The notes below the pieces were generated by a model. It saw only the letters and a program-made list of their open reading frames with translations, searched no databases and was not told the origin of the DNA. A program made the position numbers and the translations under genes. From the IMG/VR virus record IMGVR_UViG_2724678985_000012: 64,000 nucleotides of DNA. One strand, given 5' to 3'. Within the stretch, counting starts at the first letter, position 1; the number at the start of each line of letters is the position of its first letter. The DNA comes from a virus. Its lineage: Duplodnaviria; Heunggongvirae; Uroviricota; Caudoviricetes. Positions 2,939-40,247 of this stretch are shown here, in pieces.

Positions 2939-3331
2939 ATGGAACAAATCAGCAGCGCAGAAATTGCGGATATCATGATCAGGGCTGACTGCTATCTGAC
3001 AGTCACTGAAATTACCACTCTCGCCAAAGAAAAATACCCTCATCTCCATGTTTCACGAGTAAGTGTAACTAACATCATTCGTCATTTTGTTCGTTCAAGC
3101 AGGGCAATCTGTGAGCTGGATGATCGTGTGTATCCACGAAAATACTGGCTACATGGTCTGAACGGATATCAGTTCAAGGTGCGCGGGCGCACGCCTGAAT
3201 ACGGTAGCTTACTGGTTAAAAACTGTAGCAGGAAATCAGTCGAACAGGCGCGAAAAGAGCAACGAGAGCTGGTGGACATGGCGAATAAGCTGTGGAATGC
3301 CGCCGTTAAAAAGCGTGGTGTTGCTTTATGA
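2939..3331 (+). CDS. Putative DNA-binding protein at the position of P1 late promoter activator Lpa
   Basis: 130 aa, immediately upstream of and overlapping pacA; HTH-like segment; operator-like motif at 2847-2860 upstream. Confidence 0.4.
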   Translation: MEQISSAEIADIMIRADCYLTVTEITTLAKEKYPHLHVSRVSVTNIIRHFVRSSRAICELDDRVYPRKYWLHGLNGYQFKVRGRTPEYGSLLVKNCSRKSVEQARKEQRELVDMANKLWNAAVKKRGVAL

Positions 3332-4692
3332 GTCTGGTTAATTGGGAGGAGCACCGCGCCCGCTTTATAGCGTTGCGTGAAGAAAAAGGGATCACTGTAA
3401 AGGAATACTGTGAGGAGCATGGCCTTAGCTTCAATACAGCCAGAAAGCATCTCAATATGAAAAAAAATGAGGTGCGGTCGCAGGTAAAGACAACAAAAAA
3501 AAGCACCAAATCACCTGAAAAAAAACGGGCGGGAAGAGCAACAAAAAAGCTGGAAGAGGGTGCAGAAAAAACAAAATTTACAGAAATTGACAATTCGCAG
3601 GGCGCAGGTTCTTTCCGAAGTATGCCGAGAAAGAAAACTTCGGATCATGAAAATAATGCAAATAATAACAATGAGATAAAAGAATCTGTCAGGAGATCAT
3701 TGCGCGAAAAAATGGCGAAAATGATCCCCGAAGAAGATAAAAGCGCCCCAAAAATTGAGGGATCTTCAGCAATGATCCCTGGCGGTGCTGTGCAACGTGC
3801 CACATTGCCCACTACGAATGTGGCTCGCGACATGATGAAGAACGGCGCAGAAGAACACCTGCGGTTAGCAATTCAAATGGCGCAAGAGCGCGCACTTCAG
3901 TATCAAAGCATTGTTGATCAGGAGGCCGAACGTCTACAGGCGGAAATAGACGCCTTGGGCGATAAAGAGCCAGAAGGAATGCACCCTGGGCAGCGCCTTC
4001 TCGGTCTAATCAGTGACGCGGCCTACTACATGAATGATTTTATCAGTAGGTTGGCAGCTATATATCAGTCCGAACAAAAGCTGCGACAGGGGGATGAAAA
4101 GCTTCGTCAGAGCGCTCGCCAGCAAGCATTCAAAGAGGCTGAGGCCAGAGAAAAACTCGAATTAGCACGCCTACAGGCCGAACAGCGTGGCAAAGAGATT
4201 GAATATCGCATTGGCGCTGACGCACGCGCTGCCAGAGTTATCGCCGCCGCTATACGTATGCGTGAGCGCGAGGAACTGGATGATATCGGTGTTGCTGAAT
4301 ACATCGAGCGCCAGGGGGTCAGCGTCCCGGCTATCCTCGCGGCGCGCGCGGCGAAAGCTATCACTCTTCTCGAACCACCTGTTTCTGACGTCAATGATGT
4401 TGATGATGAACAGCTGGACAAAGAGGCAAGGGAGTTTGCAACGCTTCAGGCTAACCATCCGCAATGGCTGGCAGAGCGCCGGGCGGATGTGGCAACCATT
4501 GTTGAAGAATTGGGGTGCGGAGATTACGACCGCAATGGCGAGCGTAAAGCTGGAGAATTCGAGGCCAACGACGAAGAGCTGGATATTGACCCTTCGGCAA
4601 CGGCTGAAATTTACGGTGATTATGATGCATCTGATGCAGGGTATGACGCCGGAGATGATGATATCGCGATAGAACCGCCGGAGGATGATTAA
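3328..4692 (+). CDS. pacA: PacA-like terminase small subunit
   Basis: 454 aa, coupled to downstream PacB; acidic C-terminus; contains GATC-hexamer cluster. Confidence 0.65.
   Translation: MSLVNWEEHRARFIALREEKGITVKEYCEEHGLSFNTARKHLNMKKNEVRSQVKTTKKSTKSPEKKRAGRATKKLEEGAEKTKFTEIDNSQGAGSFRSMPRKKTSDHENNANNNNEIKESVRRSLREKMAKMIPEEDKSAPKIEGSSAMIPGGAVQRATLPTTNVARDMMKNGAEEHLRLAIQMAQERALQYQSIVDQEAERLQAEIDALGDKEPEGMHPGQRLLGLISDAAYYMNDFISRLAAIYQSEQKLRQGDEKLRQSARQQAFKEAEAREKLELARLQAEQRGKEIEYRIGADARAARVIAAAIRMREREELDDIGVAEYIERQGVSVPAILAARAAKAITLLEPPVSDVNDVDDEQLDKEAREFATLQANHPQWLAERRADVATIVEELGCGDYDRNGERKAGEFEANDEELDIDPSATAEIYGDYDASDAGYDAGDDDIAIEPPEDD
3641..3780. other. pac-like packaging site candidate: clustered GATC hexamers in two opposed groups
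   Basis: GATC at 3644, 3696, 3723, 3761, 3774; GATCAT elements on one side, TGATCC/GATCT on the other, as in the P1 pac site inside pacA. Confidence 0.5.
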
Positions 4693-6200
4693 TGGCTGGC
4701 GGGCGCAAGATTAAATGCGTCACCAGCGATCCACGCTGGCGCGATATGGTAATCAAATACCGCTACAACTTTACCCAGGCTGTTGTCGATATTTTTGGGA
4801 TGTTCCCCTCCCACCAGCAGCAGCAGATCATTCAGTCAGTGCAGGAAACGGGGAGTAGGACGACCGTCACGTCCGGACACGGAACGGGGAAGTCGTCCCT
4901 TACCGCGATGTTGCTGTTGATTTTTATGATCCTGTTCCCCGATGCCCGTGTCATCATTGTTGCTAACAAGATAGGCCAGGTAAAAACAGGCGTATTCAAA
5001 TACGTTAAACAGTATTGGGCGAATGCAGTTAAGCGTCATGGGTGGTTGCAGACCTATTTTGTCCTCTCTGACACCATGTTTTATGAGCGCTCCCGTAAGG
5101 GGATTTGGGAAGTTCTCTGCAAAGGTTATCGACTCGGCAACGAAGAAGCGCTGGCGGGGGAACACGCGGCACATTTGCTTCTAATTCTGGACGAAGCATC
5201 TGGTATATCTGATAAGGCGATCGGCGTAATGACCGGTGCTCTTACTGAAGAAGATAACCGGATGTTGATGCTATCCCAGCCAACAAGGCCAAGTGGTTAT
5301 TTCTACGATTCGCACCATTCTCAAGCAAAAACCCCAGACAACCCGAAAGGGATCTGGACAGCAATTGTTCTTAACTCGGAAGAATCACCGTTCGTCACAC
5401 CACAATTCATCAAGCAGAAGCTTCTGGAATATGGCGGGCGCGATTCTATTGAGTACATGGTCAAGGTGCTTGGTCAGTTCCCACGAGAAATTAACGGCTA
5501 TTTGCTTGGTCGTGATGAATGCGATCGCGCTGCTCGCCGCAAGGTGTTGTTGGAGAAAAACTGGGGATGGGTGGCAACGGCTGACGTTGGTAATGGGCGA
5601 GATAAGTCGGTCCTCAACATCTGCAAAGTATCTGGTCACAGGGATAAGCGGCGCGTTGTTAACTTTAAGGTAATGGAGATGCCTGGCACTATGGACCCAT
5701 TGGCCTTTGCTGACTTCATATATAACGAATGTACGCCGGAAAAATACCCGAATATAACAATCGCGGTTGATGCTGATGGTTTTGGTTCTGATACGTGTGC
5801 GCAGTTGGTGCGTCGTGGTGCGAACCCGGTACGTATTCGGTGGGGAAAACCCATGTTTGCGAACAAAGACAGGGAGCGATTTGTTAATCAGCGTGCCTAC
5901 GCAAATATTATGGCGCGAGATGCCATAAAGTCAGGGCGTATGCGGATAGACAGTGACCCTAAAACGGCAGAGCAAGCGTCAAAAATCCCCTTTTTACTGA
6001 ATGAAGAAGGGAAAATGGCGATGATGCGCAAAGAGCACATGCGGCAAAAGCTAAACATCAAATCGCCTGACCGATGGGATACCTACTGCTTCACTATGCT
6101 GGTGGACTATGTGCCTGCTAATGAAGATATTGGTGCCGAAATGGCAACTTTCCGAGATCAGGTTCTGGCGGATATCGAAATGCCGGATCTGGATATATAA
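4692..6200 (+). CDS. pacB: PacB-like terminase large subunit
   Basis: 502 aa; Walker A SGHGTGKS; terminase-like architecture; start overlaps pacA stop. Confidence 0.8.
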   Translation: MAGGRKIKCVTSDPRWRDMVIKYRYNFTQAVVDIFGMFPSHQQQQIIQSVQETGSRTTVTSGHGTGKSSLTAMLLLIFMILFPDARVIIVANKIGQVKTGVFKYVKQYWANAVKRHGWLQTYFVLSDTMFYERSRKGIWEVLCKGYRLGNEEALAGEHAAHLLLILDEASGISDKAIGVMTGALTEEDNRMLMLSQPTRPSGYFYDSHHSQAKTPDNPKGIWTAIVLNSEESPFVTPQFIKQKLLEYGGRDSIEYMVKVLGQFPREINGYLLGRDECDRAARRKVLLEKNWGWVATADVGNGRDKSVLNICKVSGHRDKRRVVNFKVMEMPGTMDPLAFADFIYNECTPEKYPNITIAVDADGFGSDTCAQLVRRGANPVRIRWGKPMFANKDRERFVNQRAYANIMARDAIKSGRMRIDSDPKTAEQASKIPFLLNEEGKMAMMRKEHMRQKLNIKSPDRWDTYCFTMLVDYVPANEDIGAEMATFRDQVLADIEMPDLDI

Positions 6201-6227: not shown

Positions 6228-7265
6228 TTACCAGAGCTTCGCGGCGTACTGCGTTTGGGGGAATGTGTATCCGTAACGTTCTTCGATTGCTTTGCCGTAT
6301 TTTTTACGAGCTTCATTCAGTTTAATGCCGGTCAGGTCGTCTCCAGAGGCCATCATTACGTCTAACAATTCCAGATCCATTTTATCCAGCCTTGCCATTG
6401 CTTCACGTGATGTACGTATCTTACGTTCAATGATATGGCGAATAGCCGGATCGGCATCCTCCAGCATCTTAGCGGATTTCTGCTTAAGGCTTTCATTGCG
6501 AATATCGATGTTCCTTAAGATGTACGACTTCGCAACGTAGCTTGGCTGGTGTTTTTCCAGGTCACGAACACGATATAAGTTAAAATCGCCGAGAAGGCTG
6601 CAAGGTACCGATTCGACGCCAGAATAAATTGTAATGCTCCGGCGTTCACCAACATTATTGACAACGGGGATCGTTGTCTTCGGTAGTCTTGCGAAAACCA
6701 ATGCGCCATGTGCGCCAACTCTAAAGCGAGAAAGGGCATTGCTGCCTTCGATGTTTGTTGTCAGCACAACATCTGTATATGCCTCTTTACGCGCCCGGTA
6801 GATCTCGCCTTCAGGCTCAGCTTCAAAGAAGCGCTGTTCTTCTTCAAGAGCACCTACGATTTGAGAAAAAACCCTATTTTTCAGGCTTTTCTTTATGATT
6901 TTGTCGTATTTTTTTAGCAATTGTTCACGTGTAAATGTACGTGTTGTTGTAGCGCTTTGCACAACGACATGCGTGCTTTGATTGGTGTCCTCAATGATGA
7001 ATGGGATCGGAGAATATACAGACTCAACAATGTTCGACGCTTTGCCGTCGGCATCGCGGCACATGTCAACGAAGGCTTTCCATTCAGCAAGACATTTTTC
7101 AGCTTCTTCTAATATGTTTTGGTCATGCGTTAATGCAACATGGCGGAATTCCTCGCCAGCATAACTGGTATCATGGAAAACAGAGTTTGCGACCACCAGC
7201 TCTTTCCACCGTTCAGCGGTTTGCAGGAACCGTTTGTACTCTTTCTCGATCGACTTCTTACTCAT
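6228..7265 (-). CDS. Putative immunity repressor (C1-like by position and operator context)
   Basis: 345 aa between pacB and lox/cre, where P1 carries c1; operator-like motif 15 bp upstream of its start. Sequence identity to C1 not verified. Confidence 0.4.
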   Translation of the reverse strand: MSKKSIEKEYKRFLQTAERWKELVVANSVFHDTSYAGEEFRHVALTHDQNILEEAEKCLAEWKAFVDMCRDADGKASNIVESVYSPIPFIIEDTNQSTHVVVQSATTTRTFTREQLLKKYDKIIKKSLKNRVFSQIVGALEEEQRFFEAEPEGEIYRARKEAYTDVVLTTNIEGSNALSRFRVGAHGALVFARLPKTTIPVVNNVGERRSITIYSGVESVPCSLLGDFNLYRVRDLEKHQPSYVAKSYILRNIDIRNESLKQKSAKMLEDADPAIRHIIERKIRTSREAMARLDKMDLELLDVMMASGDDLTGIKLNEARKKYGKAIEERYGYTFPQTQYAAKLW

Positions 7266-7474: not shown

Positions 7475-7508
7475 ATAACTTTAAATAATTGGCATTATTT
7501 AAAGTTAA
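7475..7508. other. lox-like recombination site (13-bp inverted arms, 8-bp spacer)
   Basis: ATAACTTTAAATA-ATTGGCAT-TATTTAAAGTTAa; outer ATAACTT identical to loxP arms, inner arm bases differ; 150 bp upstream of cre. Confidence 0.8.
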
Positions 7509-7659: not shown

Positions 7660-8688
7660 ATGAGTGAATTAATTATCTCTGGCAGCTCCAGTGGTTTTCT
7701 GCGCAACATTGGCAAAGAGTACCAGGAGGCCGCAGAAAACTTTATGCGGTTCATGAATGACCAGGGGGCTTACGCGCCTAATACTTTGCGCGATCTCCGG
7801 TTAGTGTTTCACTCCTGGGCGAGATGGTGTCACGCTCGCCAGCTCGCCTGGTTCCCGATCTCTCCAGAGATGGCCCGCGAGTATTTTCTTCAGCTGCATG
7901 ATGCTGATCTGGCTTCGACCACCATTGATAAGCACTACGCCATGCTGAACATGCTGCTTTCGCATTGTGGCCTTCCGCCACTTTCGGATGATAAAAGTGT
8001 TTCTCTGGCTATGCGGCGCATCCGGCGTGAAGCGGCAACGGAAAAAGGCGAACGAACAGGCCAGGCTATACCGCTGCGGTGGGACGATCTGAAACTGCTC
8101 GACGTCCTGTTGTCCAGGTCAGAACGGCTGGTGGACCTGCGCAACCGGGCTTTTCTCTTTGTTGCATACAATACGCTGATGCGCATGTCTGAAATCTCGC
8201 GTATTCGTGTAGGAGATCTGGACCAAACAGGTGACACTGTCACGCTACATATTTCACACACGAAGACAATAACGACCGCCGCCGGGCTTGATAAGGTGCT
8301 TTCCCGTCGCACTACTGCTGTGCTGAATGACTGGCTGGATGTTTCCGGGCTTCGTGAACATCCTGACGCGGTGCTGTTCCCGCCGATACACCGTAGCAAT
8401 AAGGCCAGGATTACGACAACGCCCCTTACTGCACCTGCAATGGAGAAAATATTTAGTGACGCCTGGGTGTTGCTGAATAAAAGAGATGCCACTCCAAACA
8501 AGGGGAGATACCGGACGTGGACCGGGCATAGTGCTCGTGTCGGGGCTGCTATCGATATGGCAGAAAAGCAGGTGTCTATGGTGGAGATCATGCAGGAAGG
8601 AACCTGGAAGAAACCGGAAACACTTATGCGGTATCTGCGCCGTGGCGGCGTGTCTGTGGGGGCTAATAGCCGCCTGATGGATTCATAA
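7660..8688 (+). CDS. cre: Cre-like tyrosine site-specific recombinase
   Basis: 342 aa; alignable along its length to P1 Cre from memory (WFP, AFL..AYNTL.R..EI.RIRV.D, HSARVGAA.DMA, C-terminal Tyr in MRYLRR). Confidence 0.9.
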   Translation: MSELIISGSSSGFLRNIGKEYQEAAENFMRFMNDQGAYAPNTLRDLRLVFHSWARWCHARQLAWFPISPEMAREYFLQLHDADLASTTIDKHYAMLNMLLSHCGLPPLSDDKSVSLAMRRIRREAATEKGERTGQAIPLRWDDLKLLDVLLSRSERLVDLRNRAFLFVAYNTLMRMSEISRIRVGDLDQTGDTVTLHISHTKTITTAAGLDKVLSRRTTAVLNDWLDVSGLREHPDAVLFPPIHRSNKARITTTPLTAPAMEKIFSDAWVLLNKRDATPNKGRYRTWTGHSARVGAAIDMAEKQVSMVEIMQEGTWKKPETLMRYLRRGGVSVGANSRLMDS

Positions 8689-36988: not shown

Positions 36989-37639
36989 ATGGTGAGTCTT
37001 TGTGATTTCACGGGGAAAATGGTCGCCCCCTGGCTGGAGCATGGTATAGATGCTGTTATCGTCGATCCACAACACGCAGAGACCAGAGATGAGCTGATGC
37101 AATCAGGCGCAGTTCTGACACGTATCAGTGCGATTATCGATAGTGATGAAGTTTATGCTTTTCTCCGAAATAATTTACAACGTATTGTGTTTTTAGCTGG
37201 TTTTCCGCCGTGCACGGACCTTGCTGTTTCCGGTGCGCGCTGGTTTGCGCATAAGGCTGACAAAGATCCGTTTTTCCAGTTCAAAGCGATGCAGGTCGTC
37301 TGGCAGTGTTACGATATTGCAAAGATGATTGGTTGCCCGTACATGATTGAAAACCCGGTCAGCCAAATATCGACATTCTGGCGTAAACCTGATCACATCT
37401 TCCATCCTTACCACTTCACTGCATATTGCAAGGAAGACAATTACACCAAAAAAACATGCCTCTGGAGCGGGCAAGGCTTTGTCATGCCTGATGCCCTAAT
37501 GGACGAATCATTAGGCAAGCCAGATAACAGAATCCATACCGCGCCACCTGGACCTGAAAGGGCTAATTTTCGAAGTGCTACTCCGCATGGATTCGCAAAG
37601 GCAGTTTTCGAAGCGAATAAGGGGGTGCTCTATGAGTAA
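36989..37639 (+). CDS. Short C5-cytosine DNA methyltransferase-like protein
   Basis: about 217 aa from MVSLCDFTGK; motif I-like DFTGKM, motif IV GFPPC, motif VI ENPV; no obvious target-recognition domain. Confidence 0.4.
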   Translation: MVSLCDFTGKMVAPWLEHGIDAVIVDPQHAETRDELMQSGAVLTRISAIIDSDEVYAFLRNNLQRIVFLAGFPPCTDLAVSGARWFAHKADKDPFFQFKAMQVVWQCYDIAKMIGCPYMIENPVSQISTFWRKPDHIFHPYHFTAYCKEDNYTKKTCLWSGQGFVMPDALMDESLGKPDNRIHTAPPGPERANFRSATPHGFAKAVFEANKGVLYE

Positions 37640-38537
37640 ATCTATAGCAAGCATAGCCATAAAAAAACAGGATACGATGGCTGAAATTAGCTATATGCGC
37701 ACCATTCGGACTCCGGATGAATATGAGCGCCCGATCTTCAAATGGGTAGGCGGTAAATTCTCAGAGTTGCCTACAGTGCTTGAGCATCTACCACACGGCA
37801 AGCGGTTAATAGAACCATTCGTTGGTGGCGGTTCCGTATTTACAAATGCAGGATTTCACCACAACCTGCTTAATGATATTAACGGTGACCTGATTAACTT
37901 CTATCAGACATTGCAGCGAGAAGGACATTCGCTCGTCACGCTGTCATATAGTTTTTTCCAAAATTACAACAACGCTGACGCTTACCTCGAAGTGCGTGAG
38001 GCATTTAACAGAGGAAAGTATGACCAGCTACATCATGCTGCCGCCTTTTTGTACCTTAATCGGCACTGTTTTAATGGCGTAACGCGGTACAACCAAAATG
38101 GCGAGTTCAACGTGGGGTATGGCAAATACAAAGCGCCCTACTTCCCACATGCAGAGATGGAGGCATTTTTGGCTGATGACGTACTCAAAAACACGTCCTT
38201 TGTATCAGGTGACTTTGCTGGCGTCATCGAGGCGGCTGGTGAAGGCGATGTGATTTTTTGCGATCCGCCGTATGAACCGCTGCCGGATACAGAAGGGTTT
38301 ACCAGTTATTCAGGAAATAGCTTCCGTTTCGACGAACAGAAACGGCTGGTATCTCTATTGGTGGAAGCCCACCAGCGCGGCGCTAAGGTAGTGATAACAA
38401 ATAGTGGTGCGCCAAACATCCGTGAACTATATGAAGGAAACGGGTTTAAAGTACATCATATGGCAGCCAGACGGTCGGTTTCCTGCAAGGCGTCAACACG
38501 TGTAGTTGCTAACGATATAATTGCGATAATGAAGTAA
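37632..38537 (+). CDS. dam: Dam-family N6-adenine (GATC) DNA methyltransferase
   Basis: 302 aa from MSKSIAS; FKWVGGK, FVGGGSVF, NRHCFNG, CDPPYEP motifs; alignable with E. coli Dam. Confidence 0.85.
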   Translation: MSKSIASIAIKKQDTMAEISYMRTIRTPDEYERPIFKWVGGKFSELPTVLEHLPHGKRLIEPFVGGGSVFTNAGFHHNLLNDINGDLINFYQTLQREGHSLVTLSYSFFQNYNNADAYLEVREAFNRGKYDQLHHAAAFLYLNRHCFNGVTRYNQNGEFNVGYGKYKAPYFPHAEMEAFLADDVLKNTSFVSGDFAGVIEAAGEGDVIFCDPPYEPLPDTEGFTSYSGNSFRFDEQKRLVSLLVEAHQRGAKVVITNSGAPNIRELYEGNGFKVHHMAARRSVSCKASTRVVANDIIAIMK

Positions 38538-38585: not shown

Positions 38586-40247
38586 TTAACCTAACTTCGC
38601 CCAGGTATCACGCAGCCCAACGGTGCGGTTAAATACCGGTTTTTCCGCCGTGGAATGGCGGCTGTCGAGGCAGAAATAACCTTCACGCTCAAACTGGAAT
38701 GCTTTACCCGCTACCGCTTCTTTCAGCGACGGTTCAGCAAAGCCCTGTTTGATCACCAGCGATTCCGGGTTAATCACCGACAGGAAATCATCCGCAGCAC
38801 CTGGGTTCGGTACACTGAACAGACGGTCGTACAGGCGAATTTCAACCGGCAGCGCATGGGCCGCGCTTACCCAGTGGATAACGCCTTTCACTTTACGACC
38901 ATCTGCCGGATCTTTGCTTAAAGTATCGGCATCGTAGGTACAGAAGATGGTGGTGATATTGCCTTCGGCATCTTTCTCCACGCGTTCAGCCTTAATGACG
39001 TAAGCATTACGCAGACGCACTTCTTTACCCAGCACCAGACGTTTGTACTGCTTGTTAGCTTCTTCGCGGAAATCGGCGCGGTCGATCCAAATCTCACCGC
39101 TAAACGGCACCTGACGGCTACCCATTTCCGGTTTGTTTGGATGGTTCGGCATGGTGACCATTTCGCCTTCGCCCTGGTAGTTTTCGATAACCAGTTTCAC
39201 CGGATCGATAACCGCCATTGCGCGCGGGGCATTTTCGTTGAGATCTTCACGGATGCAGGATTCCAGCGACGCCATCTCAATGGTGTTGTCCTGCTTGGTC
39301 ACGCCGATGCGTTTGCAGAACTCACGAATAGAAGCAGCAGTGTAACCACGACGACGCAGACCGGAAATGGTCGGCATACGCGGGTCATCCCAGCCTTCAA
39401 CGTGCTTGTCGGTTACCAGCTGGTTCAGCTTACGCTTGGACATCACGGTGTATTCCAGATTCAGGCGCGAGAATTCGTACTGGCGCGGATGAACAGGAAT
39501 GGTGATGTTGTCCAGTACCCAGTCATACAGACGACGGTTGTCCTGGAACTCAAGCGTACACAGAGAGTGCGTAATACCTTCCAGCGCATCGCTGATGCAG
39601 TGGGTGAAGTCGTACATCGGGTAGATGCACCACTTGTTGCCAGTCTGGTGGTGTTCAGCAAACTTAATACGGTACAGCACCGGGTCGCGCATCACGATAA
39701 ACGGCGAAGCCATGTCGATTTTCGCACGCAGGCAGGCTTTACCTTCTTCAAAACCACCGGCACGCATTTTTTCGAACAGCGCCAGGTTCTCTTCAACGCT
39801 GCGGTCGCGGTACGGGCTGTTTTTACCCGGCTGCGTCAGGGTGCCGCGGTATTCGCGGATCTGTTCCGGCGTCAGTTCGTCAACATACGCCAGTCCTTTG
39901 TTGATCAGTTCAACAGCATAGGCATGGAGTTTGTCAAAATAATCGGAGGAGTAACGGATGTTGCCAGACCAGTGAAAACCTAACCATTCAACGTCGTTTT
40001 TAATCGACTCGACGTACTCGATATCTTCTTTTACCGGGTTAGTGTCGTCGAAACGCAGGTTGCACTGGCCTTTATAGTCCTGGGCGATCCCGAAGTTCAG
40101 GCAGATAGATTTCGCATGACCAATATGCAGATAGCCATTCGGTTCCGGCGGGAAACGGGTATGTACTGTGGTGTGCTTACCACTGGCCAGATCTTCATCG
40201 ATGATCTGACGAATAAAGTTAGTCGGGCGGGCTTCTGCCTCACTCAT
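38586..40247 (-). CDS. glnS: Glutaminyl-tRNA synthetase, near-identical to enterobacterial chromosomal GlnS
   Basis: 553 aa; HIGH and VMSKR motifs; differs from E. coli GlnS (as recalled) at only a few positions. Confidence 0.95.

Follow-up and report, generated by a model that had tools for sequence, protein, structure and literature searches.

A conserved array of GATC-centred nonamers inside pacA is a probable packaging site of D6-type phage-plasmids

Where on the DNA does packaging begin in phage-plasmids of the D6 type? For phage P1 the answer has been known since the 1980s and is textbook knowledge: a Dam-regulated pac site lies inside the gene pacA. The P1 site comprises 161 bp with seven TGATCA/G repeats, an integration host factor (IHF) site and a central cut, and its methylation state controls cleavage (PMC10028697). 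Here we analyze a stretch of viral DNA of 64,000 nucleotides (IMG/VR record IMGVR_UViG_2724678985_000012; referred to as the window), whose pacA gene at 3328-4692 is 99.3% identical in DNA sequence to that of phage D6 (AY753669, MF356679). Escherichia phage D6 is a plasmid prophage and a distant relative of P1; judged from its sequence, the window is a D6-like phage-plasmid. Its pacA contains a tight cluster of five GATC tetranucleotides, and by analogy with P1 and from the conservation of the cluster we consider the segment 3641-3779 to be the probable packaging initiation (pac) site of D6-type phage-plasmids.

The five GATC lie at positions 3643, 3695, 3723, 3761 and 3774, corresponding to nt 316-450 of pacA. 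The original prediction, made from the sequence of this DNA, had placed five such sites within 140 bp of the gene; the count is correct, and only the two leftmost positions, given there as 3644 and 3696, were off by one. The distances from GATC to GATC are 52, 28, 38 and 13 bp (longest GATC-free gap, 48 bp). With 5 sites in 135 bp, or ∼37 per kb, the local density is about eleven times the window average. The background amounts to 3.3 GATC per kb in the window (n = 210) and to 3.6 per kb in the complete D6 genome (n = 325; 91,159 bp), and the window shows no overall over-representation of GATC (210 seen versus 233 ± 14 expected). The cluster is the tightest group of three, four, five and six GATC in the window; in the whole D6 genome it is the tightest group of four, five and six, the runner-up spreading five sites over 331-349 bp. 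The comparison with background density that had been proposed as a check therefore returns the densest cluster, but one that is not significant on its own (P = 0.16 for the window and 0.30 for the genome). Because of this non-significance, density was replaced by tests of motif and of conservation.

All five GATC sit in copies (7-9 of 9 positions) of an asymmetric nonamer, AATGATCCC, in the orientation - - + - +. From left to right the copies are:

Site A1: 3641-3649, minus strand, CATGATCCG, 7 of 9 positions, a weak copy, GATC at 3643.
Site A2: 3693-3701, minus strand, AATGATCTC, 8 of 9 positions, GATC at 3695.
Site B1: 3720-3728, plus strand, AATGATCCC, 9 of 9 positions, GATC at 3723.
Site A3: 3759-3767, minus strand, GAAGATCCC, 7 of 9 positions, GATC at 3761.
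Site B2: 3771-3779, plus strand, AATGATCCC, 9 of 9 positions, GATC at 3774, 51 bp from B1.

The window holds only two exact copies of the nonamer, those at 3720 and 3771, and the complete D6 genome has no others; a repeat search returned these two together with inverted copies at 3693-3701 and 3695-3703. Four of the 15 ATGATCY heptamers of the window fall within 137 bp here (simulation P = 3.5e-5). The hexamers read, in order, GGATCA, AGATCA, TGATCC, GGATCT and TGATCC, so that four of the five present TGATCY on one strand and none presents TGATCR. In L004, a sister lineage, AATGATCCCT is repeated without a mismatch at A2, B1, A3 and B2, and the four copies make up two inverted pairs whose GATC are 28 and 13 bp apart. 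In this lineage A3 is a perfect minus-strand AATGATCCC and forms a near-palindrome with B2, and A2 is a perfect minus-strand AATGATCCC in L004, L006 and L008 alike. The elements had originally been described as opposed clusters, left against right. We rejected this arrangement: A3, the element at 3761, shares the orientation of the two left sites.

Conservation of the array was assessed on pacA genes gathered from plasmids, IMG/VR and metagenomes, which yielded 56 genes, 44 of them unique and 42 of these full length. The array lies in the fastest-evolving segment of the gene, nt 145-480, where L004, L006 and L008 are 61-63% identical to the window, versus 76-85% at nt 1-144 and 68-80% at nt 481-1362. 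Across five representative lineages, with pacA nucleotide identities to the window of 70-92%, the GATC columns in nt 145-480 are invariant throughout (20 of 20), compared with 118 of the 316 other columns (37%; Fisher P = 8e-9). Only 10.5% of all tetramer windows in this segment are invariant among the same lineages, and the GATC elsewhere in pacA (nt 589, 634, 681, 1032 and others) are not conserved. Exactly five GATC are found at nt 100-520 in 38 of the 42 unique D6-clade pacA genes; two of the remaining four have four (L018 and L044) and two, of the Enterobacter type, have eight.

Individual sites differ in how strictly they are kept. The GATC of A1 is invariant in D6-type lineages and absent from the Enterobacter-type lineages L009 and L042. 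At B1, AAATGATCCC is invariant in a nine-sequence alignment that includes the Enterobacter type; among 33 unique sequences, L044 reads GACC at this position. The B2 nonamer is kept by every lineage of the nine-sequence alignment, and two of the 33 unique sequences (L054 and L059) show a single difference among its final base pairs, with the GATC intact. The hexamer counts over the 42 unique D6-clade genes are 153 GGATCA, 31 AGATCA, 28 AGATCC and 2 TGATCA. The Enterobacter-type relatives (∼56% amino-acid identity) have lost A1 and A3 and gained two copies, one located 11 bp before B1 and the other in a nearby insertion; they also possess a separate left cluster of three GATC at 12-bp spacing, ∼190 bp upstream. 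Such a turnover of sites with their number kept would be the behaviour expected from a functional binding-site array. Lineage L007, a Shigella dysenteriae plasmid (CP026821), stands apart in that its pacA is broken after 116 codons (open reading frame of 351 nt including the stop) and its alignment shows single-base gaps within the pac region; it is likely to be a defective prophage or to carry a set of assembly errors.

The position of the sites relative to the reading frame provides a view of what is being conserved. The five copies occupy all three codon phases and both strands, and they encode D-H (A1), R/G-S-L/F (A2 and A3) and M-I-P (B1 and B2); one and the same motif is thus translated into unrelated peptides depending on its strand. 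The first codon of A2 and of A3 alternates between AGA (Arg) and GGA (Gly) while the GATC stays, and at the sites isoleucine is always encoded by ATC and aspartate always by GAT. Because the motif persists on either strand and in each of three frames, the constraint acts on the DNA and not on the protein.

The arrangement can be compared directly with that of P1, whose annotation places pac within pacA and groups the hexamers as HEX4 and HEX3. Sites of this kind, ∼161-162 bp long and cut by PacA/PacB in a staggered fashion at the centre, are shared by P7 and other P1-type phages. In P1 pacA, GATC hexamers lie at nt 195, 202, 214 and 229 and then at nt 325, 337 and 348, with one more at nt 376; the IHF site is at nt 256-268, the cuts are at nt 275-284, and pac as a whole extends over nt 195-351. 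Both sites are situated in the 5' third of pacA, within a segment that codes for a linker, with pacB adjacent, and the repeats of both have a GATC core throughout. In addition, an A/T-rich segment with a 13-mer that is tentatively IHF-like lies between elements of the D6-type site, and both phages encode a Dam-family methylase and carry a Cre or Dre target ∼4 kb downstream. The D6-type site differs in having five copies versus seven in P1 and in its - - + - + orientation, which includes two inverted pairs (28 and 13 bp). The likeness to P1 pac put forward in the original prediction is well supported for a Dam-site array inside pacA, and fails for the hexamer itself, the copy number and the 4+3 arrangement. 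The IHF-like sequence is entered as follows:

Tentative IHF-like 13-mer: 3666-3678, plus strand, TAACAATGAGATA, between A1 and A2, identical at 10 of 13 positions to the P1 IHF site AAACAAAGAGTTA.

It lies in the A/T-rich stretch 3649-3692, its codon frame differs from that in P1, and its core AACA....G.TA is conserved in the D6-clade lineages. A scan of the distant PacA clades with the IHF consensus gave no match of 8/9 or better.

The other PacA clades (P1, Citrobacter, Leclercia, Pantoea and Serratia types) also concentrate their GATC hexamers at nt 150-480 of pacA. In the non-D6 sample, made up of 39 unique pacA genes of the Citrobacter, Leclercia, Pantoea and Serratia types, these hexamers are overwhelmingly TGATCA, whereas those of the D6 clade are TGATCC or TGATCT. 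The putative recognition helix of PacA differs along the same line: it reads NTARRYL in P1 and NTARKHL in D6, and across the clades the N-terminal helix is NTARKHL in the D6 clade only and NTARR[Y/E/Q][L/F] in all others. Helix and site motif appear to have changed together, which is only suggestive. We tentatively, and with slightly less than even confidence, propose that the D6-type site is a re-tooled P1 signal, in which a change of the helix from RR[Y/E/Q] to RKH would have accompanied that from palindromic TGATCA to asymmetric AATGATCCC in inverted pairs, giving a specificity orthogonal to that of P1 and still gated by Dam. If true, this would represent a natural case of co-evolution between a terminase and its pac site, and would equip phagemid delivery systems with a second pac/pacase pair that is independent of the first.

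A further conserved element is found to the left of the array:

Conserved block: 3574-3594, plus strand, AAATTTACAGAAATTGACAAT, with TTACA and TGACA at a distance of 10 bp from each other; the block lies 50 bp to the left of A1.

In the 33 unique sequences some 14 of the 21 positions of the block do not vary, synonymous third positions (ACA, GAC) among them, within an otherwise diverged linker, and it contains no promoter-like match. The block may belong to the pac site, which would then reach left to ∼3574; it could be a further protein-binding element there, or it could reflect a peptide motif, FTxxDN.

The part of the proposed packaging mechanism that is seen directly consists of five oriented, GATC-centred nonamers in the portion of pacA encoding the PacA linker, which is poorly conserved. 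By analogy with P1, the N-terminal DNA-binding domain of PacA would bind these nonamers, and PacA together with PacB would cleave the concatemer in the cluster or next to it, possibly assisted by a host bending protein (IHF or HU) at the A/T-rich stretch 3649-3692. Synteny with P1 suggests that headful packaging would proceed from there toward pacB, c1 and rox, the target of the Dre recombinase. The terminal redundancy of the first headful would then contain rox, which would allow Dre to circularise the genomes of that headful. Given the GATC core of each unit and the presence of a Dam gene on the phage, adenine methylation probably gates the cutting as in P1; the GATC would have to be fully methylated for a cut to be made, and packaging would thereby lag behind replication, as has been proposed for P1.

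Several observations weigh against assigning pac function to 3641-3779, a reading that draws on analogy and on conservation. None of the five D6-type elements matches the palindromic TGATCA/G of P1, their unit being the asymmetric AATGATCCC (TGATCY); their spacings of 13-52 bp contrast with 7-15 bp in P1; and the 4+3 split around a ∼90-bp GATC-free centre is missing. Natural variants exist in which one GATC has become GACC by a T-to-C change, in A2 of L018 and in B1 of L044. Tolerated variation, decay of the prophage or sequencing error could each apply to these two changes. The P values for the motif are optimistic because the motif was defined after inspection of the data, and the joint change of helix and motif is suggestive only, as it represents a single evolutionary event. 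As to the 13-mer, 140 bp are expected to contain ∼0.06 sequences that agree by chance with its P1 counterpart at 10 or more of 13 positions, and it fits the IHF consensus at only 7/9 positions; such matches occur by chance at 10.6 per kb, and since this is chance level the IHF-like site is tentative. Transfer of the P1 spacing would put the cut at ∼3685-3694, immediately left of the A2 GATC (3695), which is pure extrapolation. Finally, uniform placement of GATC yields a cluster of 5 in 135 bp in 16% of simulated windows and in 30% of simulated genomes. This last result, a GATC-only cluster in 16-30% of trials, also suits the explanation that the array has no function in the DNA and is a chance aggregation kept by coding constraint on PacA peptides (MIP, GS, DH), as does the fact that B1 and B2 both encode M-I-P. 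We find this hardly credible given that opposite-strand nonamers encode unrelated peptides, that arginine is exchanged for glycine with the GATC kept, and that synonymous positions are fixed, with all 20 GATC bases invariant in a linker of ∼61-63% identity.

A role in the DNA other than packaging has to be considered as well. Clustered GATC are a substrate of SeqA and of methylation-sensitive regulators, and conservation at the DNA level would fit any role in cis. The array could be a Dam/SeqA-sensitive element that times or attenuates the expression of pacA and pacB or sequesters new plasmid DNA, its nonamers being bound by another protein. This is quite improbable in our view: no sigma-70-like promoter site was found at 3300-4800, the array occupies the same relative place in the small-terminase gene as the proven P1 pac, a place common to all PacA clades, and its motif changes along with the N-terminal helix of PacA. 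The cluster might also be only a partial pac site or a remnant, with packaging starting elsewhere or relying on extra elements such as the block at 3574-3594 or an unrecognised left arm; the five GATC would then correspond to one arm of a P1-like site. The two clusters of P1-type sites, 90-130 bp apart, the left cluster of the Enterobacter type ∼190 bp upstream and the strongly conserved block 50 bp to the left are in keeping with such an arrangement, which we nevertheless judge unlikely, because D6-type lineages lack any GATC in pacA between nt 63 and nt 316 and the five sites already hold both orientations and two inverted pairs. The reading of 3641-3779 as pac thus remains the one that we prefer.

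Headful pac sites in or next to the small-terminase gene are also characteristic of P22 (gene 3), Sf6 and SPP1. These systems share with the D6-type candidate a recognition site of the small terminase embedded in or beside its own gene, and processive headfuls; their pac sites are not known to contain Dam-site repeats or to be under methylation control. Escherichia coli oriC and P1 oriR likewise hold several closely spaced Dam sites, and their function is tied to methylation state. Unlike these origins, the D6 cluster is part of pacA, a long way from the annotated repA and repL homologues, and is free of iterons and DnaA boxes.

The genes around the array support its comparison with P1. The order lpa-pacA-pacB-c1-rox-dre is annotated in the D6 records and is P1-like:

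lpa: 2939-3331, from the open reading frame list and the D6 annotation.
pacA: 3328-4692, plus strand, small terminase (pacase A) subunit, an open reading frame of 454 codons, named pacA in the D6 records; holds the GATC cluster.
pacB: 4692-6200, plus strand, large terminase (pacase B) subunit, 56% identical to P1 PacB over 488 amino acids.
c1: 6228-7265, minus strand, from the D6 annotation.
rox: 7476-7507, minus strand, Dre recombinase target, an exact 32-bp match, annotated in AY753669.
dre: 7660-8688, from the D6 annotation.
Dam-family adenine methyltransferase: 37575-38537, plus strand, matching PF02086 (MethyltransfD12) with E = 2e-56 and TIGR00571 (dam) with 249 bits (cut-off 115).

Both pacase subunits of P1 have homologues in the window. 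PacA and P1 PacA are 21% identical end to end (E = 6e-10); over the N-terminal ∼45 residues the identity is ∼35%, as counted on the alignment, and this region keeps the motif W..H..F..G.T..Y..L..NTAR, which is clearly related to that of P1. In a Pfam search PacA matched no family, a scan of species-representative genomes returned no relatives of it, and a tblastn search of the phage collection found D6 alone at E ≤ 1e-5, P1 PacA being too distant. PacB, whose Terminase_6N match is weak, is presumed to be the nuclease/ATPase partner of PacA. The rox site lies 3.7 kb downstream of the candidate pac; in P1, lox lies ∼4.0 kb downstream of the pac cut.

The coordinates of lpa and pacA overlap by 4 nt (3328-3331). 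There is therefore no intergenic room for a late promoter like LPpac of P1, which lies between lpa and pacA, and transcription of D6 pacA must be organised otherwise than in P1.

The original prediction also credited the element with a Dam of its own, and this was borne out by the D12-class open reading frame at 37575-38537 with its matches to PF02086 and TIGR00571. In the D6 record its orthologue, D6_63, is called a DNA-adenine methylase resembling the C-terminal half of P1 Dmt; the start annotated there lies 57 nt downstream of that of the window open reading frame. The GATC specificity of the enzyme is predicted from its family membership.

A survey of phage-plasmids reported that the D6 subgroup (P1-g2) has homologues of pacB only and that its members are hence less likely to be P1-like transducers (PMC7969092). 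The sequence comparison qualifies this statement: D6 pacA is a real, syntenic but very divergent homologue (21% identity), which the survey probably missed owing to its similarity threshold.

The D6 site would extend the principle known from P1, with the asymmetric unit, the five copies, the inverted pairs and the missing 4+3 split as its variant features. In the deposited records of D6, rox and cix are annotated, and a pac is not. We did not find a description of a D6 pac in the literature searched; the primary D6 papers (Sauer & McDermott 2004; Gilcrease & Casjens 2018) may contain a prior account. If the assignment is true, it places the packaging origin of the D6 group (P1-g2 phage-plasmids), a group common in both E. 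coli and Salmonella, and it fixes the start and direction of the headfuls; from these it would follow which of the plasmid genes undergo duplication or transduction most frequently. P1 pac is already used in phagemid delivery tools, and synonymous destruction of its GATC sites has been carried out (PMC10028697). A pac/pacase pair with another motif could serve in phagemid delivery as a packaging signal orthogonal to P1 pac.

Some further observations concern the array and the window at large. In the IMG isolate genome 2537562191, contig L117 ends and contig L106 begins at 3647-3656, inside the GATC cluster and just right of A1, the two overlapping by 10 nt (ATGAAAATAA); this break could be an accident of assembly or could point to a physical end of the DNA. 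The use of contig ends as a proxy for physical DNA ends was dropped, as only one of 20 IMG/VR contigs ends in the region. Beside the Dam-family gene and RdgC, on the minus strand at 38586-40247, the window encodes a full-length glutaminyl/glutamyl-tRNA synthetase with three Pfam domains, the counterpart of which is already annotated as GlnS-like (D6_62) in the D6 record. The plus strand at 135-1178 codes for a protein that contains an SPFH/Band-7 domain (PF01145, E = 2e-30). At 1863-2438 on the same strand, an open reading frame of 191 amino acids, whose counterpart is labelled hypothetical (orf6) in the D6 record, contains a Tad2-like (Thoeris anti-defence 2) domain (PF11195, E = 1e-9).

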